The position numbers and the translations under genes are program-made. A stretch of DNA of 64,000 nucleotides from a virus: the UHGV virus genome UHGV-0076294, one strand, 5' to 3'. Shown piece after piece: positions 952-59,054 of the stretch. How positions within the stretch are numbered: the first letter of the stretch is position 1; each line of letters starts with the position of its first letter. The notes under the pieces are model-generated. The model was not told the origin of the DNA. It was given only the letters and a program-made list of their open reading frames with translations, and did no database searches.

Positions 952-976
952 CTCAGATATATATTACTTAGGTGAG
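952..976 (+). promoter_or_regulatory. phage promoter-like motif CTCAGATATATATTACTTAGGTGAG
   Basis: Intergenic, 48 nt upstream of ATG 1024; near-identical copy at 58177-58201 and related copies at 18684, 27784, 9216. Confidence 0.45.
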
Positions 977-1023
977 AGTTAAGATTAACTCTTTTACTTG
1001 TTAACCCCACGAGGAGAAAAACA

Positions 1024-1485
1024 ATGAAAATCTTCACTTCCTTTTTAATCGGCCTTCTCGCAATCGGATTCAATACTGCACACGCTGCAATCAATAGTTG
1101 GGAACAACTACAGAACCCAGGTCAAGCTGTTTACGAAATCGAAGACACCACCGGAAACGGACTGTCTATCAACTGTGACACTGAAACCGCGAATCGCAAA
1201 TTTTACGGTCGCATGGTTTGGTATTACGGGGAACCTGTAGGTGCAACTAACGCTGAAGACAACACGCTGGATATTGTCGTAAATGGCAAAACTTACAACA
1301 TCCCTACCGTGGATGGTAGTGACAAAGCAGAACTCGCTTGGGTGGCTTTCGTTAATGCTATCGGCAATGCCAAAACTTTCAGTGTGAATATCAACGGAAA
1401 CGAAGCCGCTAACTTTACCGTAGAAGGCGAACGTCTGTCTGAAACTTTCTTCCAGAACTGTGGACACACCCGTCCTAACAAATAA
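1024..1485 (+). CDS. small secreted protein (signal peptide), unknown function
   Basis: N-terminal MKIFTSFLIGLLAIGFNTAHA signal-peptide-like; GAGGAG RBS; 2 Cys in mature part. Confidence 0.7.
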   Translation: MKIFTSFLIGLLAIGFNTAHAAINSWEQLQNPGQAVYEIEDTTGNGLSINCDTETANRKFYGRMVWYYGEPVGATNAEDNTLDIVVNGKTYNIPTVDGSDKAELAWVAFVNAIGNAKTFSVNINGNEAANFTVEGERLSETFFQNCGHTRPNK

Positions 1486-3836: not shown

Positions 3837-4445
3837 ATGAACGAAATTACTTTGGTTCGTTTTATCGAAGCGATGCGACTAAACGAAGCTAATCCTCACT
3901 CTCCGTTATTTATCGATTTAATGGAGGAAGAAGTCGAAGGGTTCTTAGCGTACCCGCGTTTGAAAGCGTATTTCGAACGTAAAACACCAACCGCTTACGA
4001 AAAGCTGATGTACGCGTTAGATAACCGTACTACGCTAAATAATACGCCGTTTAAAGCGCTGGAAGCAATAGACCCTACCGGGGGTGCAGGTATCCCACAA
4101 CGTGTTGTGTTCTACTACATCGACAACGGTCGTATTAAGGCCGACGTTGTAAATTGGATCTCTGAAGGGGAAATTCCAGAAACGCGTACTTTTAACCTCT
4201 GCCCGGTAGAAGAAGGTTGGGTCGCAGGAACACATTATTCCTATCCGTATCAAAGCATCAAATCACCTTATCTGTACCCGGTGTATTTGGATGACGTTAC
4301 GCCAGGCAAATGTGTTCCCGTTACCAATCTGATTTGTTTACTGACGATGGAAGTTGTTGCGTCTGACGCAGGCCAGGCTTGGGTTGAGCAATCGAAAAAT
4401 ATCCAAAACTGGCAGGGGATGGGTTACAAACTCTACCAGCCGTAA
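3837..4445 (+). CDS. hypothetical protein
   Basis: 202-aa ORF with AAAGGAAA RBS, bounded by terminators on both sides. Confidence 0.6.
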   Translation: MNEITLVRFIEAMRLNEANPHSPLFIDLMEEEVEGFLAYPRLKAYFERKTPTAYEKLMYALDNRTTLNNTPFKALEAIDPTGGAGIPQRVVFYYIDNGRIKADVVNWISEGEIPETRTFNLCPVEEGWVAGTHYSYPYQSIKSPYLYPVYLDDVTPGKCVPVTNLICLLTMEVVASDAGQAWVEQSKNIQNWQGMGYKLYQP

Positions 4446-18024: not shown

Positions 18025-18692
18025 TGCTGATTGTTTTTAGTCAAGCGTTATCGATGGCACCGAGTTATATCCAGATACGCTTTTCAGCAATTGCGCGTCA
18101 GCAGTGGGGCTTTAAAGCCCCCTATTCTGACGACCACTATACACTCGGTGAAGTAGCACTTGAACTTGCTTTACGTTCATTGTGGGAAATCATTGCATTG
18201 TACAATGCAGGTTGTGATATACCGAAAGATTGTTTCCCACAGCGGGTGATTGCACAAGGCACTACGAACACTTACGGTAATCCGGCATTGGTGGAAGAGT
18301 GCTTAGGCTACGCTAACCAGTCTGGGGAACTGCAACATAACTTTAATCTGGTGATTAACAAAGTCTGGAGTGAGCTGGAAAGCTACCCTGAAAAGATTAT
18401 CTGGTTTGATCGTAACCAATTCGTTAAGGAGGTGGCCAGTAAACGACCCGTACGTTTAGTTGCCTTAAAGCCCACCGACCTTGATTTGAAACAAACCTAT
18501 CCCTTCCCAGAGGAAATTCGACTTTCTCCAGAAACCGTAGGTCACACTATTTTCAAACAAGGTGACGCCTGGATACTTCCTCACGATCTAGACCGTTTCC
18601 TGCTCAACTCCGATCAGATTCACTCCGGCTATGATTCTCTCGTAAAAGAGTTTCACATCGATCCCTATTTCGCTAAAAACTTTCTTAGATAG
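18024..18692 (+). CDS. hypothetical protein
   Basis: ATG overlaps RNase H stop (TGATG); AAGGAA RBS 5 nt upstream. ORF track start 18021 is TTG. Confidence 0.5.
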   Translation: MLIVFSQALSMAPSYIQIRFSAIARQQWGFKAPYSDDHYTLGEVALELALRSLWEIIALYNAGCDIPKDCFPQRVIAQGTTNTYGNPALVEECLGYANQSGELQHNFNLVINKVWSELESYPEKIIWFDRNQFVKEVASKRPVRLVALKPTDLDLKQTYPFPEEIRLSPETVGHTIFKQGDAWILPHDLDRFLLNSDQIHSGYDSLVKEFHIDPYFAKNFLR

Positions 18693-18706
18693 ATATTATT
18701 CAGGTG
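18684..18706 (+). promoter_or_regulatory. promoter-like motif CTTAGATAGATATTATTCAGGTG
   Basis: Overlaps stop of previous gene, 24 nt upstream of ATG 18730; matches copies at 952 and 58177 at most positions. Confidence 0.35.
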
Positions 18707-18729
18707 TAGAACCCTCGGAGTTAATCACC

Positions 18730-19467
18730 ATGTTGAAAGTTTATGTCCCTCAATTACAACGTATTAATCCCTCGTTGTTCGAGGGATTCTTTTATAAAAT
18801 TTGGCCACAATACTTCAATGAACACCTGAAAGACTCAAAATGGTCATCTGTCCAAGGAGAATTCTTTTACACCGCACAATCAGCCTGTACAAATGTCTTT
18901 ACCCACCTCATCTCTGAGGTTATTGACGCTGTCAACACCAACCGAAACTTTGACCTTCGTGACGTCATAATAGATCTCTCAGCGATCTTCGATAACTACG
19001 ATTGCGATGACGCAGTATTCGAACATTTCTCCTCTGAAGATGTGTGGGAGGCCGTTTATCAATGGCTAGAATACTACGTGAATTTTCTACTTTCCTCGAA
19101 CATGTTAGAAAATTACAATAAAGCACTCTTTCCCATTTATAACGACTTAATGAACGTTAAACTGACAAAGAATCTCGTTGGTTTTTGGTATTCGACCTAC
19201 GACGCTGAAAGCAGGTTGTGGGAAAAAGAAATGATCGCTTACGGCATCGAGCGCGGCGATTATGATGAATTATATCGATGTTATTGGCCATTCAATCATT
19301 ACGAAAAAGGGTGTCAAGGCGATCCGTATTTGTGGTCTTTTTATTTCTGTAATCAGACTGGTGTTATTTATCTTGAAGACACCGGTGTACGAATCCCTAA
19401 CGGTACTGATGTAACATACTGCCAATTACGTAAAGACCGGGCTGACGCCATTTATCAGGATTATTAA
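18730..19467 (+). CDS. hypothetical protein
   Basis: 245-aa ORF; RBS CTCGGAG region upstream. Confidence 0.55.
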   Translation: MLKVYVPQLQRINPSLFEGFFYKIWPQYFNEHLKDSKWSSVQGEFFYTAQSACTNVFTHLISEVIDAVNTNRNFDLRDVIIDLSAIFDNYDCDDAVFEHFSSEDVWEAVYQWLEYYVNFLLSSNMLENYNKALFPIYNDLMNVKLTKNLVGFWYSTYDAESRLWEKEMIAYGIERGDYDELYRCYWPFNHYEKGCQGDPYLWSFYFCNQTGVIYLEDTGVRIPNGTDVTYCQLRKDRADAIYQDY

Positions 19468-21030: not shown

Positions 21031-21065
21031 ACCCTAGCTTCGGCTAGGGTTACTTTATTTTTAAC
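21031..21065 (+). terminator. intrinsic terminator
   Basis: ACCCTAGC-ttcg-GCTAGGGT followed by TACTTTATTTTT. Confidence 0.65.
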
Positions 21066-21084
21066 CATTTTAGGAGAATATACC

Positions 21085-27783: not shown

Positions 27784-27808
27784 GTCAGACAGATATTATT
27801 TACGTGAG
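27784..27808 (+). promoter_or_regulatory. promoter-like motif GTCAGACAGATATTATTTACGTGAG
   Basis: In divergent intergenic region 21 nt upstream of ATG 27829; shares AGATATTA..T.A.GTGAG with the other copies. Confidence 0.3.
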
Positions 27809-27828
27809 ACATTCTTTCGGAGTGAATT

Positions 27829-28377
27829 ATGTTTACAGGATTAATAACACGTTTTAAGAAACGTCTACAGCAAAAGCGTTTACAGGCTCTCAGAGAGTCT
27901 CTAAGGCAGGAGTTTCATAAGAACATCCATAACCCCTGCGCGAGAACGTTTAGCGGCTTACGGTTGCTTACGTTGCCTATAAACGTAGATACCGAACCCT
28001 ACCACCCCAGCTTACGTGGTAATCTCGAGTTACGTATCGCTAATCTCGATATTCTTTACCAACGTCTTGCTTTTTATATCAACGAATACCAACGCACGAT
28101 TAATGGAACCTCTATCGAGTGGTTATCATTGCCAGAGTCGTTAAGTAAACAAAAAGACTCATCGGAAAACCGCTGGTTAGACACTTATTTTGGGACGTCC
28201 AATCCGGCGGTTGCCTATTATAAGCTAACGCAGTTACTCGAGCTTATCGAACCTTACGAAGATATTTTCTTAAAGCCCAAGACCGATGAAGATCGGGCAT
28301 TGGTAAATCACTGTGCACATTTGTTTCGTGAAATGGAGGTACTCATCGAACACTACCTTTTAAACCGACCTGTTTAA
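27829..28377 (+). CDS. hypothetical protein
   Basis: 182-aa ORF; RBS CGGAG. Confidence 0.5.
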   Translation: MFTGLITRFKKRLQQKRLQALRESLRQEFHKNIHNPCARTFSGLRLLTLPINVDTEPYHPSLRGNLELRIANLDILYQRLAFYINEYQRTINGTSIEWLSLPESLSKQKDSSENRWLDTYFGTSNPAVAYYKLTQLLELIEPYEDIFLKPKTDEDRALVNHCAHLFREMEVLIEHYLLNRPV

Positions 28378-47337: not shown

Positions 47338-48963
47338 GTGAATAAACTTAATTGGGTTGACTTTTATCTGCTCAATGTAAACAAGTCTCTTGTGTCGCGA
47401 TTACGACCCGTCACGACCACAGATACTTTTCAAGGGTTGACAAAAAACTTTCACCCTGAAGGGTTGTACTCCACGGAGATTTTCGGTCTTACGGGAAGTG
47501 AAGCCCGAGACTCAACGTTTTCTTACATTGATATTAAATTAGATATCATTTCGCCGACGGTGTGTTTGGCGTTATTCCAACTAAAACAACTCTACGAAGA
47601 AATTTGTTCTGGAAAACGCTACGCAACCTGGAACGAAAAAGAAAAAGATTTTGAACCGGCTTTGCCTGGCGACGCTGGCGCAGATACCGGTTTTAACTTT
47701 TTCCTTAGTCACTACAACGACTTAAAACCCGGACGTAACGAATCGTTACAACGTGACGAAACGGTGGATTTCTTCGAGAAGTTCCGTCCCGTGAGTCTTA
47801 GCCGCTATGTTCTCGTATTACCCGCGGGTTTACGTGATTTGGTGGTTAGACAAGACGGTAGGGAACAGGAAGAGGAAATCGGTGGGTTATATCGTCGTTT
47901 GATTTCTTTGGCCAGGGCGATTCCTGACCGTGCTACACGGGTTGAATTAACGAACCCTGTGCGATGGAAACTCCAACAAACCTTTAACGAAATCTGGATG
48001 TACTTCTTTAACATCCAGGACGGTAAAGGAGGTTTCCAACGTCGTAAAGTGACGTCGCGTAAACTGATGAACGGGACACGTAACGTATTGTCCTCATTCT
48101 CCACAGGCTCTAAATGCATGGGGCGTGAGGATGCGATTCGACCGACCGACACCAAAATTGGTTTGTATCAGGGTCTGAAAGCGTTGCTACCTGTTGCGCA
48201 ATACCAGATACGTGAACGTTACCTCGGTAACATTCGTGCTGGCGATGGCAACCTTTATGGCGTAAACACCAAAACGCTTAAACGCGAGTTCTTGGAGGTT
48301 GGGGGTCGTGTTTACGACACCTTTACCACAGACGACGGTATCGAAACATTAATTAACCGGATGGAAGCTCGCGAGCTTCGTCATCAACCGTTAATGATTA
48401 ACGATACCCATTACGTCGCACTGGTCTACCAAGACAACAAACATTTTAAGGTGTTCTACGATATCGATGAACTGCCTAAAACGTTTGACCGTAAAAACGT
48501 CCACGGAATGACCCTGGTAGAATTACTCTACTTATCGGGTTACGAACTGTGGAACAACTATTTCGGTTTCGTTACGCGTTATCCCGTCACCGGTCGAGGC
48601 TCGACGTACTCATCGACCATAAGATTGGAGACCACCACGTCATCTTTATACCTAAAAGAACTGGAAGATGACTGGGAGACTGAAAAGCCACACGGAGCTA
48701 TCAGTTATCCTGACAGGTCGGTTCCAACCTTTGTTGAGTCGATGGCACCGCACCCGTCACGATTGGGTGGCTTAGGGGGTGACTACGATGGTGACACCGG
48801 TTCACTTAACGCGCCTATGTCGCAAGAAGCACTCGAGGAAAACCGTAACTGGATACACTCGAAGAACTACTGGTTCGATTCTGACGGGAATTTCAAAATC
48901 AATCCTGTCAACAACGTGATTAAACGTGCGACGCAAGCGTTATTAAAGAATCCAAAAGGCTAA
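47338..48963 (+). CDS. RNA polymerase beta-prime-like subunit, N-terminal fragment type, tentative
   Basis: GTG start after AGGAGA RBS. C-terminal ...TRYPVTGRG...APHPSRLGGLGGDYDGDTGSLNAPMSQEALEE parallels beta-prime NRAPTLH...LHP...[23 protein letters not shown]; motif position (~485 of 541) matches E. coli beta-prime (~460). Confidence 0.5.
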   Translation: MNKLNWVDFYLLNVNKSLVSRLRPVTTTDTFQGLTKNFHPEGLYSTEIFGLTGSEARDSTFSYIDIKLDIISPTVCLALFQLKQLYEEICSGKRYATWNEKEKDFEPALPGDAGADTGFNFFLSHYNDLKPGRNESLQRDETVDFFEKFRPVSLSRYVLVLPAGLRDLVVRQDGREQEEEIGGLYRRLISLARAIPDRATRVELTNPVRWKLQQTFNEIWMYFFNIQDGKGGFQRRKVTSRKLMNGTRNVLSSFSTGSKCMGREDAIRPTDTKIGLYQGLKALLPVAQYQIRERYLGNIRAGDGNLYGVNTKTLKREFLEVGGRVYDTFTTDDGIETLINRMEARELRHQPLMINDTHYVALVYQDNKHFKVFYDIDELPKTFDRKNVHGMTLVELLYLSGYELWNNYFGFVTRYPVTGRGSTYSSTIRLETTTSSLYLKELEDDWETEKPHGAISYPDRSVPTFVESMAPHPSRLGGLGGDYDGDTGSLNAPMSQEALEENRNWIHSKNYWFDSDGNFKINPVNNVIKRATQALLKNPKG

Positions 48964-48966
48964 TCA

Positions 48967-51900
48967 ATGCTGCTCATTAAACAGTTTAACCAACGCTTCT
49001 CTGTGCGTAAAACAGACGAGTTTGGTAATCCGAGGATTATCCCGCTCGAGAAGCTCCAGATACCACGAGGCTCTATACTGCACGTCGTGGATCTCGATCA
49101 GGTGGTCTTAGCGCCACCTGCTACGCTGGAAATCATCCAGCCGTTGGAAAAACCTGCACAAATTCGCCACCACTTTAAACTTCCCGAAGAAGGGATCAGT
49201 GGGCATCCACGTAACAAACCTGTGCAGGGGCAAGAACGTGCTATCTTTGCGTACCATCGCGCTAACCGTCCAATTCGTCGCCTGACTTCAGACGACCTGA
49301 TTCGTAAAGACTTAAAAGTTCTCCTTATCGAGAACTACACACCGATGTTATCGCATTACTACTATCCAGACACTCAGTTAGCCTGGTACGATAGACTGCG
49401 TAACATCCAGCTGTTAATGACTAACCAGTTCAAATACGACACGCAAGAATACATGCGTCAAAACTACTTCGTGATTGAGCTGGGGTCAACGTTACCGTCT
49501 TTCCAGAAGTTCCAAACGACGTATAACGATCGTGTTAAAAGCAAGATTGAAAAGTTCCAGGACTTTAACCTGTTGTGGTTATTGGAACTGTTCGCTTGGG
49601 CATACGGTAAACAGTCCGATTCTCTGTTTGCAGGAATGGACTTAACGCAACTGTCTCGAATGAACTTCATCTTCACCCACAACAGCGGCTTTACGTCGAT
49701 GAACATGGGTGTCGTGGAGAAGATGCGTAAATCGTCCGGTGGTCGTTTAAGTGACGATCAAATGGCCAGGATGTTCTATCGTACGTTAGTGCGTGTAATG
49801 ACACAAGCACCGTCTAATGCGTACGAAGCTGAATTCCTGACACCGGAAGGTGATGAACGTATCTTTGTTAAGGACATCGAAGAGGATACCGTTGACGTCG
49901 TTGACGATACAGACGTTGTTAACGACGCTGTGGTTGAATCGGATAACGCTTTCGATGAAAAAGAAGACCTCGTTATTGAGGAGCCGAAAGAAGACGTTAA
50001 GCCGACGACTATCGTTATCGAAAAAACGATTGCTCACGATGACATTATCAAACAGGAAGCGCAGAAACTGGCTGAGGCGGGCCGCTTAAGCTCCAAAGCG
50101 TATCAGTTCCTGTCTGATTCGACCAAACGTTTCGTTCAGTTACCAAACCCGTACAACCCGAAAGAGACTTACGGCGAAGCATTAACCATTCACGAAAAAG
50201 ACATTGCCGTGAAAGCGGAACCGAAGAAAGTCCAGCGACTGGTTACGGATGAAGGTTGGGCAGAAAACGTCACCGACCAAATGGTGAAACAATACAACCA
50301 GACCATGATGAGTAAAGACGTGCTGGCAGCAGTCGCCAGCTCGCAGCGTCTTGGTTTGGCTATTCACAACCACACGATCGAGAAAGAGATTTCCGTTACG
50401 GGAACTATCGAACACCACACCCTGCGAGTTCAACCGATTGGTGGTGAACCGACGACAGTGCGTTTCTCTATCCCTGGTTTAACCGAAGACGGTACCTGGG
50501 TAGCAAACGGTGTTGAATACACCATGCGTCGTCAGCGTGTAGACGTGCCGATTCGTAAGGTCGCCCCAGACACCGTAGCGTTAACTACCGCTTACGGTAA
50601 AAACTTCGTACGTCGTAGTGACAAAGTCGCAAACGACTACGGCCGTTGGTTAACGAACGCGATTATCACGCGTGCCGTAGACCCGACCAACACGGAGATC
50701 ACAGACGCACGACTCGCGAACGTTTTCGATCCTACTGAGAAACTTCCTCGTCAGTACACGGAGATTGCACGTCGTATCGCCAGCTTCAATGCAGGCGGGT
50801 ATATGTGGAACTTCGATTATAAAGAAGCGGTTAACTTCTTTAATGACGAACAACTTACTGACGCAAATAACGTTGAGATGTTGCCGGTTGCGAAACGTCC
50901 GCGCAGTGAAGTTATTGTGGTGATGGATACCAAGTCCATGCTCTATACCGTTAAAGGTAAAGAGTGTACACCACTGGGTACCATCTTGGAAGTGCTTGGT
51001 TTCAGTAGCCAGAAAGCGCCAAGAGAAATGACTGAGCTTTCACTGATGGGCAAATCGCTCTCACTGGGCTTCATCTTCTCGTTCTATTTAGGTCTGCAAG
51101 GGATGCTTAAACATTTCGGCATTCAGTACGAAATCGTCCCTGTTGGCCAACGTGTAGATAAGAGCACGTACGATTCTATTATTCGTCTCCAGGACAGTAA
51201 GTTCCTGGTAACGTGTGATAACGATCAGCAACGAATGATTCTACACGGTCTGGATAAGTACCTGAAACACCTGGTGGCTTATACCGAGTCCGAAGTCGAC
51301 CGCGAAGACATTTACCTGAACTTAATACGTGATGCAGATGGGCTAACCCCACGCTACATCAACGAGCTGAAACAAATGCGGGCCGCGTTTGTTGATGACA
51401 TGCACGCACGTATCCTCAGGAAAATGGGTGAACCGGAAACCTTTATCGGGCTATTGGAACGTTCTAACGAACTGTTACAAACCGACCACTCTTTACCGGA
51501 GATTAACGGTGATGAGATGATGTTCTTAGGGAACCAACGTATTTCCTACCACATCTACACTGCGATGGTCAGGGCGATGCGTAACTACAACAACGCACCG
51601 AACAGTAACCGTAAGTTCGAGCTTACTCAGGACATGATTTGGGGCGCAATTAACTCCGACCCGTCTGTTCTGTTAGCGCCGGGTGCTAACCCTATCCAGT
51701 CGATTAAAGAGAAAGACGTTATCACCATGGGGGGTACGGGCGGCCGTAACCGTAAAACAATGGTTTATCACACGCGTGAGTTCCAACCGAGTGACCTGGG
51801 TATTGTTTCCGGTAACACGGTGGATAACGGTGATGTAGGTATTACTGCTTTCGCCACTAACAACCCACGTTTCGATACCGTTGACGGCACAACCTATAAA

Positions 51901-53133
51901 CGGGATGAAAAGAAACTGAAACCGAGCGACACTCTGTCATTTATTGACGGTCTCGTGCCGGATACCCTGATGGATGACGCTAAACGTCAAAACTTCGTTG
52001 GGATTCAGTTAGGTTCTGCCACCAGTTGCAACGGCGCTACCACTACCCCTTATCGTACCGAACAGGAGAAATTTGTCGCTCACCGTACGTCGGTGAAACA
52101 CGCACGCGTTATTGATAAAGCAGGTAAAATCACCGGTCTGTCTAAAGACCATATCGAAATTACGTACGAAGATGGAAGTAAAGAAGCCTTTCCTCTAGGG
52201 CGCTGGTTCGGCCCCCACGAAGGTACCTTCTATCCGCACACCCTGGTGACTCGCTGGAAAGCCGGTGACAAACTCCCGGCCGGGGCAGTCATCACTTATA
52301 ACGAGCAACACTTTGAACCCGATATCTACGACCCTACTCAGGTTTCCTGGAAAAACGGGGTGCTGGCTACCGTCGCTTTAATCGAGGCTGAAGAAGTAAT
52401 CGAAGACTCCAATGCTATTTCTGAACGGTTCGCGAAGAAAATGGTTGGGCAGGTTACTAAGCTGAAAGAAGTGGTGATTAACAGCAACCAGATGCTCCTG
52501 GAAATCGTTAACGAAGGGGAACACGTTGACGTCGACACAATCCTATGCACATTTACTGACGACCTTACGGGGGATATGAGTACCTTTAGTAAGGAAGCAG
52601 CACAAACGTTGCAAAGTTTAAGTTCGTACGCACCTCGTGCTGGGGTTCGTGGTATCGTGGATAAAATCGAAGTCGTGTATCACGGTGAAACCGAAGACAT
52701 GACGCCTTCACTGGCAGAACTGGTACGCAAATACGATCGTATTCGTCGTAAAGCAGCGTTGGCTGTTAATCGTGGCGATCCGGTATCAGGGAGTGTTAAT
52801 GGGGATTACCGTGTAGAGGGTGTACCGTTAGCCTTTAACTCGCTTTGTGTTCGATTCTTTATTACGCACGAAGTTGAAATGGCCGCAGCGGATAAGATGG
52901 TTATTGCTAACCAGCTGAAAACCACTGTACAAGAAGTGATGTACGGGGAAAACAAAACAGAAGATGGCGACGACATTGACATTTTGTTCGGTCGTGATTC
53001 TGTCGACGCACGTATTGTAGGTTCTATCCAACGAATCGGTACCGCAAATGCTGTGGGTGAACAAGCAGGGATTCTTATCGGTCGTATTCTCGACGGCGAG
53101 TCCGTGCCTGAGTTACCAGCGACACTTAAATAA
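48967..53133 (+). CDS. large hypothetical protein (1388 aa), possibly another RNAP subunit or virion protein
   Basis: Starts 3 nt after the beta-prime-like gene; acidic low-complexity insert (DTVDVVDDTDVVNDAVVESDNAFDEKEDL); no canonical beta or beta-prime motif recognised by eye. Confidence 0.6.
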   Translation: MLLIKQFNQRFSVRKTDEFGNPRIIPLEKLQIPRGSILHVVDLDQVVLAPPATLEIIQPLEKPAQIRHHFKLPEEGISGHPRNKPVQGQERAIFAYHRANRPIRRLTSDDLIRKDLKVLLIENYTPMLSHYYYPDTQLAWYDRLRNIQLLMTNQFKYDTQEYMRQNYFVIELGSTLPSFQKFQTTYNDRVKSKIEKFQDFNLLWLLELFAWAYGKQSDSLFAGMDLTQLSRMNFIFTHNSGFTSMNMGVVEKMRKSSGGRLSDDQMARMFYRTLVRVMTQAPSNAYEAEFLTPEGDERIFVKDIEEDTVDVVDDTDVVNDAVVESDNAFDEKEDLVIEEPKEDVKPTTIVIEKTIAHDDIIKQEAQKLAEAGRLSSKAYQFLSDSTKRFVQLPNPYNPKETYGEALTIHEKDIAVKAEPKKVQRLVTDEGWAENVTDQMVKQYNQTMMSKDVLAAVASSQRLGLAIHNHTIEKEISVTGTIEHHTLRVQPIGGEPTTVRFSIPGLTEDGTWVANGVEYTMRRQRVDVPIRKVAPDTVALTTAYGKNFVRRSDKVANDYGRWLTNAIITRAVDPTNTEITDARLANVFDPTEKLPRQYTEIARRIASFNAGGYMWNFDYKEAVNFFNDEQLTDANNVEMLPVAKRPRSEVIVVMDTKSMLYTVKGKECTPLGTILEVLGFSSQKAPREMTELSLMGKSLSLGFIFSFYLGLQGMLKHFGIQYEIVPVGQRVDKSTYDSIIRLQDSKFLVTCDNDQQRMILHGLDKYLKHLVAYTESEVDREDIYLNLIRDADGLTPRYINELKQMRAAFVDDMHARILRKMGEPETFIGLLERSNELLQTDHSLPEINGDEMMFLGNQRISYHIYTAMVRAMRNYNNAPNSNRKFELTQDMIWGAINSDPSVLLAPGANPIQSIKEKDVITMGGTGGRNRKTMVYHTREFQPSDLGIVSGNTVDNGDVGITAFATNNPRFDTVDGTTYKRDEKKLKPSDTLSFIDGLVPDTLMDDAKRQNFVGIQLGSATSCNGATTTPYRTEQEKFVAHRTSVKHARVIDKAGKITGLSKDHIEITYEDGSKEAFPLGRWFGPHEGTFYPHTLVTRWKAGDKLPAGAVITYNEQHFEPDIYDPTQVSWKNGVLATVALIEAEEVIEDSNAISERFAKKMVGQVTKLKEVVINSNQMLLEIVNEGEHVDVDTILCTFTDDLTGDMSTFSKEAAQTLQSLSSYAPRAGVRGIVDKIEVVYHGETEDMTPSLAELVRKYDRIRRKAALAVNRGDPVSGSVNGDYRVEGVPLAFNSLCVRFFITHEVEMAAADKMVIANQLKTTVQEVMYGENKTEDGDDIDILFGRDSVDARIVGSIQRIGTANAVGEQAGILIGRILDGESVPELPATLK

Positions 53134-58118: not shown

Positions 58119-58158
58119 GGGTAGTCTATCCAGTGGATAGACTACCCTACCTATTTTT
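58119..58158 (+). terminator. intrinsic terminator
   Basis: GGGTAGTCTATCCA / TGGATAGACTACCC inverted repeat followed by TACCTATTTTT. Confidence 0.6.
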
Positions 58159-58176
58159 AACCCTATTGAAAAATAT

Positions 58177-58201
58177 CTTAGATATATATTACTTAGGTGA
58201 G
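58177..58201 (+). promoter_or_regulatory. phage promoter-like motif CTTAGATATATATTACTTAGGTGAG
   Basis: 24 of 25 nt identical to 952-976; 51 nt upstream of ATG 58253; conserved ACTTGTTAACC box in the leader of both copies. Confidence 0.45.
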
Positions 58202-58252
58202 CGTTGTAGAATTACACGCTATTCGACTTGTTAACCTAAAGGAGTATTAAAG

Positions 58253-58642
58253 ATGAAAAACGAATTATTCAAAGACCCGTTTGTTGTATTACTGATTTCT
58301 ACTCGTGCTATCATGCGTCCAGATGACCTGGAACGATTAATTACAGACGAAGCTTATCTGTGCGAGCAGCGTGACAAACTACTGAACAAAGAATGTCCAG
58401 ATGAGTTAATCGAACCTTTTGTACGTATCATTCGCGATGAAGAATGGCGTAAAAAAAATCAACTGTCTGAAAACATCGCCGTATCAGTTGGATGTCTGTT
58501 TATGGTTTTTAAGTTCGACAAAGACATCTGGTACCTCTTTACTGACGAAGAACGCAAAGTCTTAATGGACGATCTTCAACTTGCCACAAAACGTGTTAAC
58601 AAATTCGTCGCTAACCGTACGCAGGTAAATCTGGAAAGATAA
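58253..58642 (+). CDS. hypothetical protein (paralogue of 58644-59033)
   Basis: 129 aa; N-terminal ELFKDPFVVLLIS resembles ELIEVCRDPFTLWLLCS of the next gene; AAAGGAG RBS. Confidence 0.55.
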   Translation: MKNELFKDPFVVLLISTRAIMRPDDLERLITDEAYLCEQRDKLLNKECPDELIEPFVRIIRDEEWRKKNQLSENIAVSVGCLFMVFKFDKDIWYLFTDEERKVLMDDLQLATKRVNKFVANRTQVNLER

Positions 58643-58643
58643 A

Positions 58644-59033
58644 ATGGAATGGTCAAAAGAACTTATCGAGGTCTGTCGTGACCCGTTCACACTGTGGTTA
58701 CTGTGCAGCTTACGACGTGACGACAGATTCTATACTTTCGTCAAAGACCCACAAGCGTTAGCCAATCACGTAAAACGTGAGGAGACGCGTTTAGAGACGC
58801 TTAAAGAGGAAAGTAATACCCTAGAACCAGCTGATGCGTTTTATGTCCGTATGATGTCTCCTACGTGGCGTAGAACGCATCGGTTAAAGGCACCGACGTT
58901 AGCAGATATGGTACAAGAACTTGCCCGAGCGGTGAGTTCTGACCATCTGCTCTATCGGAATATCATTCAACAACCTGACAGTTGGCACGACTTACGTCTG
59001 ATGTTAATCCGCTGTCAGTTCACTTTCTCCTAA
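58644..59033 (+). CDS. hypothetical protein (paralogue of 58253-58642)
   Basis: 129 aa; starts 1 nt after previous stop. Confidence 0.55.
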   Translation: MEWSKELIEVCRDPFTLWLLCSLRRDDRFYTFVKDPQALANHVKREETRLETLKEESNTLEPADAFYVRMMSPTWRRTHRLKAPTLADMVQELARAVSSDHLLYRNIIQQPDSWHDLRLMLIRCQFTFS

Positions 59034-59054
59034 TCGACATGTAAGGTTTTATAA

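Follow-up and report, generated by a model that had tools for sequence, protein, structure and literature searches.

The 64,000-nt stretch of the virus genome UHGV-0076294 analyzed here (the window) carries two copies of a promoter joined to a 5' leader (952-1023 and 58177-58252, both on the + strand) that appear to be early transcription units of an SPN3US-like jumbo phage, one that would form a phage nucleus like phiKZ. Each leader opens with a hairpin at the predicted transcription start and ends with a short sequence box placed just ahead of the Shine-Dalgarno sequence and the start codon. In the leaders of related phages the pairing of the hairpin is kept while the stem sequence differs, which supports the presence of a conserved RNA structure, and the box is anchored to the start codon. 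The interpretation favored here, at a probability of roughly 0.6, is that the hairpin protects the early mRNA and that the box is a translation-initiation element (an enhancer, a standby site or the target of a translation factor). The promoter class is known; the clade-wide hairpin at +1 and the box anchored to the ribosome-binding site (RBS) were not found in the searchable literature, where searches with the sequence itself and for 5' untranslated region (5'UTR) features of jumbo-phage early transcripts returned no description of this leader design.

In the mechanism proposed, a terminator would end transcription arriving from upstream, and a promoter of roughly 40 bp, with the core ATATATATTAC followed by 6 nt and a G, would be read by a multisubunit RNA polymerase carried in the virion. 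Transcription would begin at G974 and G58199, and the first ~20 nt of the mRNA would fold into a hairpin of 7-8 bp that leaves no free 5' tail. Such a hairpin could shield the message from 5'-end-dependent host decay (RppH, RNase E), as in ompA, papA and T7 gene 10, at a stage when the injected genome would be serving as template for early mRNAs and the degradosome of the host would still be intact. Next would come a U-rich stretch and then the box, which would lie outside the promoter and keep a constant distance to a strong Shine-Dalgarno sequence on its 3' side; from there it would act in translation initiation.

Early promoters and the cassette family

Positions 955-976 and 58180-58201 carry the 22-nt repeat AGATATATATTACTTAGGTGAG without a mismatch, and the window holds only these two matches even when up to three mismatches are allowed (0.00 in shuffles). 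The likeness between the copies spans about -40 (ATTAAAAATAATCTCAG in copy 1 versus ATTGAAAAATATCTTAG in copy 2) to +3, beyond which the leaders diverge save for an 11-mer and the Shine-Dalgarno region. A sequence-only reading of the window had proposed that a promoter and its leader are duplicated ahead of two unrelated genes. The duplication is real, with AGATATATATTACTTAGGTGAG and the 11-mer ACTTGTTAACC exact at both sites; the repeat does contain a promoter, the TATATTAC core of the early promoters of phiKZ-like virion RNA polymerases; and the two genes are indeed unrelated, as their 153-aa and 129-aa products have no detectable similarity to each other.

The TATATTAC core lies at 960-967 and 58185-58192 and is identical to the published core of phiKZ early promoters. 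According to a review, every jumbo phage that encodes an RNA polymerase has an AT-rich motif of ~10 nt centered near -10 of its early genes, which is presumably read by the virion polymerase. The rule given for AR9 early promoters is AAATATATATTAT-(6N)-G+1, and transcription in phiKZ and phiR1-37 also starts 6 nt past the motif. All seven TATATTAC sites in the first 50 kb of phiKZ read TATATTAC-NNNNNT|G, and the window sites read TATATTAC-TTAGGT|G or, written with a longer core, TATATATTAC-TTAGGT|G. Because AR9, phiKZ and phiR1-37 start at a G 6 nt past the motif, the transcription start was placed at G974 and G58199, which are the most likely positions by analogy. Neither locus has a sigma-70-like site, which rules out a host-type promoter at copy 1 and copy 2. 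These comparisons support identification of the repeat as an early promoter of the phiKZ-like virion RNA polymerase.

The copy 1 promoter occupies 940-973, with ATTAAAAATAATCTCAG at 940-956, the core ATATATATTAC at 957-967 and the spacer TTAGGT at 968-973. The copy 2 promoter at 58165-58198 has the same layout (ATTGAAAAATATCTTAG at 58165-58181, ATATATATTAC at 58182-58192 and TTAGGT at 58193-58198). A terminator scan places a strong intrinsic terminator directly before both promoters. The copy 1 terminator (899-930, elsewhere given as 899-918) consists of GGTGGGGTGTAAACCCCACC and a T-run and would insulate the cassette against transcription from upstream; that of copy 2 (58119-58158, elsewhere 58119-58147) has a 13-bp stem, GGGTAGTCTATCC...GGATAGACTACCC, followed by T-rich sequence.

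By sequence likeness and gene order, the window belongs to the genome of a jumbo phage of the SPN3US/phiEaH2 type with a multisubunit RNA polymerase of its own. The tail-sheath region shares 83-86% identity with those of SPAsTU and SPN3US, and the gene order of the window corresponds to that of SPN3US at ~166-229 kb. Two open reading frames (ORFs) at 47338-48963 and 48967-53133 match PHROG families annotated as "RNA polymerase beta subunit" (E = 1.9e-235 and 0) and are syntenic with SPN3US gp026 and gp025; Pfam did not detect either ORF. They are taken here, on these matches, to be subunits of a virion-type phage RNA polymerase. When a 6-kb query around copy 1 was compared with phage genomes by megablast, the sole matching segment was 940-998, which aligned at 89-91% identity with intergenic DNA of phiEaH2, SPN3US, EC001 and about 25 other jumbo phages. 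Conservation in that region is therefore highest in the promoter and the beginning of the leader.

Related cassettes were collected from IMG/VR with the promoter pattern alone, using TATATATTACTTAGGTGAG first and then ATATATATTACYTARGTG. A scan of viral contigs with the 14-mer ATATATTACTTAGG had given mostly chance occurrences in unrelated contigs among the matches listed, and an 18-mer with two degenerate positions was used instead. The search found 60 distinct sites. Of the 55 in jumbo-phage contigs, 44 cassettes remained once redundant ones were removed; they come from about 15 genomes of related phages, among them SPN3US, phiEaH2, several isolates of Erwinia phages and metagenomic relatives of the window. 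The leaders were not used for selection, so their properties are free of bias from it; the core was used, and it is the conservation of its flanks that constitutes the finding. The cassettes share a common order of parts: terminator, AT-rich upstream region, core, G at the start, hairpin, U-rich stretch, box, strong Shine-Dalgarno sequence and ATG. A hairpin with a T-run lies just upstream of the promoter in most of them, and the leaders are mostly 44-64 nt long (50 and 54 nt in the window copies). The whole SPN3US genome has nine sites of the form ATATTAY-N-TA-N-GTG, and the window has two consensus copies.

Weaker variants of the promoter occur in the window at 18684-18730 (AGATAGATATTATTCAGGTG) and 27784-27829 (AGACAGATATTATTTACGTG), before ORFs 18730 and 27829. 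Their predicted starts are G18706 and G27806, and their leaders of 23-24 nt have neither a consensus +1 hairpin nor the box. SPN3US sites at 4432, 7395, 15619, 23815 and 72689 look like members of the same class (GATATTAT). In two relatives (L185 and L186) the copy 2 orthologues have the promoter core AGATATATTTTACTTAGGTG, in which TATTTTAC replaces TATATTAC, and retain the leader; this variant could reveal which promoter positions tolerate change.

Hairpin and box in the leaders

The copy 1 hairpin (974-993) has the sequence GAGAGUUA-AGAU-UAACUCUU, with 8 bp, a 4-nt loop and a folding energy of -6.8 kcal/mol; the predicted +1 is G974. The start and hairpin of copy 2 span 58199-58220, with AGCGU(U)GUA-GAAU-UACACGCU at 58200-58220 forming 8 bp with one bulged U (-7.4 kcal/mol). 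The two hairpins thus occupy the same position with different sequences, pairing from +1 in copy 1 and from +2 in copy 2 relative to the predicted start, and folds of the full leaders of both copies retain them. When +1 to +34 was folded in the 44 cassettes, the first paired nucleotide was +1 in 31 and lay within +1 to +4 in 39, with a mean stem of 7.1 bp and a mean loop of 5.7 nt. A hairpin of at least 5 bp beginning at +1 or +2 was present in 32/44 leaders compared with 12.1 +/- 2.8 (maximum 20) in 300 shuffles that kept the first three nucleotides fixed, and the mean minimum free energy (MFE) was -6.0 kcal/mol versus -2.25 +/- 0.26 in the shuffles.

The stems are varied in sequence and include GAGAGUUA/UAACUCUU, GAGAUUGC/GUAAUCUU, GAGCGUUA/UAACGCU, GAACUUGC/GUAAGUUU, GAGCAUUGA/UCAAUGCU, GAGGAU/AUCCUC and GAUAGA/UCUAUC. 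A covariance-model alignment of 26 matches replaced a MAFFT alignment that was ungapped and left the 3' arms unaligned. In the covariance-model alignment 96% of cells are paired versus 75.8% in shuffles (0/500), and changes on both sides occur in five of the eight pairs. The covariation score is 0.49 versus 0.158 in shuffles (0/500) and falls to 0.06 or less when the partner is slid by 1-3 columns. The alignment holds 28 G-U cells and only 7 unpaired cells, which points to an RNA structure of the sense strand more than to a structure of the antisense strand or to a symmetric cruciform in the DNA. For copy 1, where UUAAC of the box could pair with GUUAA of the 5' arm, pairing between box and hairpin was also considered; it was dropped as copy 2 has no equivalent and the full-leader folds retain the 5' hairpin. 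Across the whole window nothing reached the gathering threshold of an Rfam 15 family, and the two loci gave only chance-level scores (E = 0.2-0.6) that fall far short of it.

SPN3US has a cassette at 165689-165785 (L139/L175), the position corresponding to copy 1 of the window. Its leader contains the +1 hairpin, then a GC-rich hairpin with a T-run (GGCTACCTTCGGGTAGCC TATTCTTTTTT), then the box and the ATG. The second hairpin may be an attenuator within an early leader.

The 11-mer ACTTGTTAACC is exact at 996-1006 and 58226-58236. At up to one mismatch the window contains five matches (1.63 expected), of which the three extra ones, at other sites, can be explained by chance. The copy 1 box, a lineage form of (T)CGACyWT-TTAAyC, begins 28 nt ahead of the ATG. 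In copy 2 the box extends over 58223-58236 (TCGACTTGTTAACC), with the 11-mer starting 27 nt before the ATG, and when begun at its GAC (from 58225) it aligns position by position with GACCATTTAACCTAAAGGA of phiEaH2-like leaders. When leaders are aligned on the start codon, the box (T)CGACyWT emerges across the family just ahead of the Shine-Dalgarno sequence; in the window and its nearest relatives TTAAyC follows this box. The box takes the form GACTATCAAGGAG in the Erwinia-phage group, AATCGACTATTAATCTAAAGGAG (also given as AATCGACTATTA) in SPN3US and AATCGACCATTTAACCTAAAGGA in phiEaH2-like phages; in the window it reads TCGACTTGTTAACCTAAAGGAG in copy 2 and TTTACTTGTTAACCCCACGAGGAG in copy 1. 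Apart from the two leaders of the window, exact ACTTGTTAACC is seen only in orthologous leaders of the nearest relatives. More distant orthologues read ACTTGGTAACC, ACTGTTTAACC or TACATTAACGCC, and other leaders of the lineage have GAGTTGTTAACC, GACTTGTTTATTAC or other sequences.

The pattern GAC[CT][AT]T is present in 18/42 leaders versus about 1.1 expected. It lies either 18-20 or 25-28 nt from the ATG, in two tight classes, but anywhere from 27 to 46 nt from the start site. Internal cistrons that lack a promoter are also preceded by the box and a Shine-Dalgarno sequence (SPN3US 57148, 167594 and 224199). The fixed distance to the ATG and the promoterless cases place the box in the ribosome-binding region and not in the promoter; the varying start-site distance and the same internal cistrons rule it out as a promoter element.

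A box-like sequence, TAATCGACATGTAAGG, occurs in the window at 59031-59046, where it overlaps the stop of ORF 58644-59033 and precedes ORF 59055, an internal gene of the copy 2 operon. The site has neither promoter nor hairpin. The orthologous SPN3US site at 224199 reads TTAATCGACCATTATCGTAAGGA.

Several further proposals of the sequence-only reading concerned the leader itself. An RNA structure was suspected there, and both leaders do fold into hairpins, with covariation in related phages. The "small palindrome" GTTAAGATTAAC noticed in copy 1 exists, although it is really the top of the 974-993 hairpin, and the copy 2 hairpin differs from it in sequence. The spacing said to be shared is so only in part: the box-to-ATG distances are nearly equal (28 and 27 nt), whereas core and box are 29 nt apart in copy 1 but 34 nt in copy 2. 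Absence of the box from other copies of the promoter was to count against the proposal; by that measure strict ACTTGTTAACC fails, being absent beyond orthologues, and the degenerate GAC[CT][AT]T, which recurs in the 18 leaders counted above, passes.

Module reuse and the genes behind the cassettes

Identical hairpin modules, or identical 30-nt RBS modules, stand before non-homologous genes within one phage or in different phages. One leader (L145) joins a copy 1-type hairpin to a copy 2-type box and Shine-Dalgarno sequence. In the contig IMGVR_UViG_3300029126_000001 (L158, 9509-10010), a homologue of the copy 2 gene (52% amino acid identity) lies between a copy 1-type terminator/promoter and the copy 1 orthologue. 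This inserted homologue uses the leader of a third gene, and the copy 1 gene after it is left without a promoter of its own. The hairpin in this insert has the substitution GCACTC for GCTCTC, which weakens the stem. The earlier idea of a portable cassette is therefore partly right: modules recur before non-homologous genes, and in one relative a gene has been inserted behind the promoter.

A mosaic boundary was seen at the copy 2 locus when window 58253-58642 was compared with three relatives (L184, L185 and L186). Identity to the relatives is 91-100% over the promoter, the leader and the first 60 nt (20 codons) of the gene and 66-68% over the remainder of the gene, a pattern that suggests replacement of the gene body or very fast divergence. 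The boundary holds even for contig 3300045988_078609, whose copy 1 product is 99% identical in amino acid sequence to that of the window. Such individual cases, which do not amount to a systematic survey, bear apparent marks of recombination at or near the cassette and point to promoter cassettes as possible recombination points in jumbo-phage genomes. The two window copies are alike because the cassette appears to be built of a few reused modules that were copied and recombined before different genes.

Related arrangements occur at other sites. At window 21063-21084 an RBS module, AACCATTTTAGGAGAATATACC, lies between a terminator and ORF 21085 with no early promoter; two related contigs (L003 and L163) have exactly this sequence as the 3' half of an early leader, there in front of an unrelated gene (MNFTKLDY...). 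phiKZ (L182) has an identical promoter and ~30-nt leader, GATATTTAACCTTCAATTAATGTAAAAAGG, at 2665 and 4516 before the different genes PHIKZ006 and PHIKZ010.1, a duplication of promoter plus leader like that in the window.

The copy 1 leader ends with the Shine-Dalgarno sequence GAGGAG (1011-1016) and the ATG at 1024 (together 1011-1026) of a 153-aa ORF (1024-1485). In copy 2 the corresponding elements (58239-58255) are AAGGAG (58239-58244) and the ATG at 58253 of a 129-aa ORF (58253-58642), which is the first of a run of small genes of unknown function. Pfam returned nothing for the two products, and PHROGs returned only families of unknown function. The N-terminus of the copy 1 product (window 1024-1086), MKIFTSFLIGLLAIGFNTAHA, resembles a signal peptide and is retained in orthologues; the product is probably an early phage protein exported to the periplasm.

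Competing explanations and likeness to known systems

Several observations weigh against mRNA protection by the hairpin and a role of the box in translation. Taken singly, the window hairpins are unremarkable (z = -1.7 for copy 1 and -1.1 for copy 2). The hairpins of the family represent about nine copied stem types, so that some of the events counted as covariation were inherited, and the sequences, which are related, were aligned by fitting to the structure. The start call is based on homology and could be 1-2 nt off; some cassettes pair into the GTG (GTGAGAG...CTCTCAC), which would fit a start 2 nt further upstream. A hairpin at +1 occurs in only 2/7 early leaders in the first 50 kb of phiKZ. 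It is therefore not required by the polymerase class or by early mRNAs generally, its status as a general trait of phiKZ-like early mRNAs is ruled out, and the hairpin is specific to the SPN3US-like clade. The box is degenerate, its strict pattern is missing in more than half of the leaders and the exact 11-mer is lineage-specific. At the copy 1 locus an orthologous leader is 75% identical and the gene 77%, so the leader has not evolved more slowly. No partner of the box was found, and its complementarity to 16S rRNA is no better than that of shuffled boxes. In an ungapped scan of 11 box variants against E. coli rrsH, the best scores (15-23) were within the range of the shuffles (means 17-21, maxima 22-28) with no shared 16S site, which rules out pairing with 16S rRNA of the epsilon type.

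One competing explanation is shared descent alone, in which the box and part of the likeness of the hairpins are leftovers of duplication or gene conversion and only the promoter and the Shine-Dalgarno sequence are under selection. The presence of modules before non-homologous genes and the few copied hairpin types are consistent with it, as are the contig 3300029126, where a homologue of the copy 2 gene with a different leader lies directly behind a copy 1 promoter, the restriction of the exact 11-mer to one lineage, and the box region of the copy 1 locus, where the leader of the relative with 75% identity has diverged most. Descent alone is nevertheless rather unlikely, given that the GACyWT box recurs in 18/42 leaders from several genera at a fixed distance from the ATG although the flanks are otherwise unalignable, and that it also precedes internal cistrons without promoter or hairpin. 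The window 11-mers, moreover, are identical while both immediate flanks differ, a pattern that a recent conversion tract hardly explains. A different possibility is that the hairpin and the box together form a tag recognized by an RNA-binding protein of the phage, either delivered with the virion or made early. Such a tag would sort or export early mRNAs from the early infection vesicle or load them preferentially on host ribosomes; either role is judged quite unlikely. The design is common to many unrelated early genes per phage and conserved across genera, and the box has lineage-specific versions repeated over several leaders (AATCGACTATTA in SPN3US, GACTATCAAGGAG in the Erwinia-phage group, GACTTGTTAACC and GAGTTGTTAACC in the window), which is what co-evolution with a trans-acting factor would produce. 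If a tag of this kind exists, the versions AATCGACTATTA, GACTATCAAGGAG and GACTTGTTAACC would reflect co-evolution with the RNA-binding protein. A study of AR9 also reports an unexplained motif in early 5'UTRs. However, no candidate protein was identified, gene conversion could equally produce the lineage-specific pattern, and phiKZ leaders lack the design.

A downstream promoter element for the virion polymerase, or an operator at which a DNA-binding protein of the phage would shut down early transcription, could reside at the DNA level in the hairpin region or the box, and the highly conserved +1 to +6 (GAGAGT or GAGATT), contiguous with the promoter, the palindrome GTTAAC within the window box and the reported sensitivity of the phiKZ non-virion polymerase to sequence downstream of the start would agree with this. 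It is made very unlikely by the position of the box, which is 27-46 nt from the start site but fixed relative to the ATG and which occurs without a promoter; the family box, in addition, is not palindromic, and the stems vary freely provided that they pair, with G-U pairs common, which argues for RNA rather than recognition of duplex DNA. It is scarcely probable that the +1 hairpin and the following UUUU act as an attenuator, that is, a weak terminator or pause that aborts early transcripts at ~25 nt or tunes read-through. CUUUU or UUUA commonly follows the hairpin, premature termination in 5'UTRs is described as frequent in phiKZ and 201phi2-1, and the SPN3US 165689 leader has its extra GC-rich hairpin and T-run, but the window hairpins, at -6.8 and -7.4 kcal/mol, have short stems rich in A and U, and only 3-4 U residues follow, two of them within the stem. 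An intrinsic terminator calls for a GC-rich stem and at least five T residues, and the copy 1 stem has two G-C pairs and a G-U closing pair. The terminator scan likewise flags the upstream terminators and not the leader hairpins, and genuine terminators of the window phage are GC-rich with long T-runs.

A protective hairpin and a box acting in translation initiation remain the preferred explanation of the leader. The combination of promoter, predicted start, hairpin and box provides a searchable definition of early units in SPN3US, phiEaH2 and Agrican-type jumbo phages of Enterobacterales, which aids annotation of early (host-takeover) genes. It raises hypotheses on how mRNAs made by the injected polymerase are stabilized and translated in the first minutes of infection, and it offers a compact expression cassette for engineering these jumbo phages. 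The region is nonetheless a control region of an ordinary phage kind, and the leader design is an incremental addition to a known promoter class that leaves the current understanding of these phages unchanged.

Early promoters of phiKZ-like phages (phiKZ, AR9, 201phi2-1, OBP and N1M2) likewise have an AT-rich core, a T|G 6 nt downstream and an AT- or T-rich upstream region. As in the window, small genes of unknown function lie downstream and split beta/beta' polymerase subunits are encoded. In contrast to these promoters, the conserved block of the window is longer (CAGATATATATTACYTAGGTGAG) and runs on into a stereotyped leader, and the number of copies per genome is lower, with about 9 consensus sites in SPN3US versus 32 or more in phiKZ.

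The closest design is that of the T7 gene 10 leader, in which a phage-polymerase promoter is followed by a stem-loop from +1, a U/A-rich enhancer and a strong Shine-Dalgarno sequence. The epsilon enhancer UUAACUUUA of this leader (phi10) was reportedly described by Olins and Rangwala in 1989. The window leaders agree with the T7 leader in the order of parts and in total length, with a UUAAC-containing box a few nucleotides 5' of AAGGAG, and the window box UUGUUAACC resembles T7 UUGUUUAAC. Unlike the single-subunit polymerase of T7, the window polymerase is multisubunit, and the family box TCGACyAU is not epsilon; the window boxes match UUAACUUUA at 6-7 of 9 positions (by eye), and complementarity to 16S positions 458-466, or to any other site in 16S rRNA, does not exceed that of shuffled boxes.

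Stem-loops at the 5' terminus stabilize E. coli mRNAs, including those of ompA and papA, against 5'-end-dependent decay. Stabilizing 5' stem-loops are said to have been described by Emory (1992), Bouvet and Belasco (1992) and Arnold (1998). All three papers stand in the reference list of PMC3997798. The window cassettes resemble ompA and papA in having, at the predicted 5' end, a short hairpin preceded by zero to two unpaired nucleotides, with pairing that is conserved over sequence, in an enterobacterial host with RNase E and RppH. They differ from these mRNAs in their weaker stems (about -6 to -8 kcal/mol), in a 5' end that is predicted and in a stabilizing function that we infer.

A further parallel is found in the promoter-early stem-loop (PeSL) cassettes of T4-type phages (PMC2839356, PMC4122927). 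As in PeSLs, a terminator stem-loop and an early promoter form a composite that is repeated in the genome. Gene shuffling at the cassette may be a further likeness, seen in a few individual cases (one insertion behind the promoter and one boundary ~60 nt into the copy 2 gene). PeSL promoters are read by the host sigma-70 polymerase, whereas the window loci lack a sigma-70-like site, and PeSLs are not described with a +1 hairpin or an RBS box.

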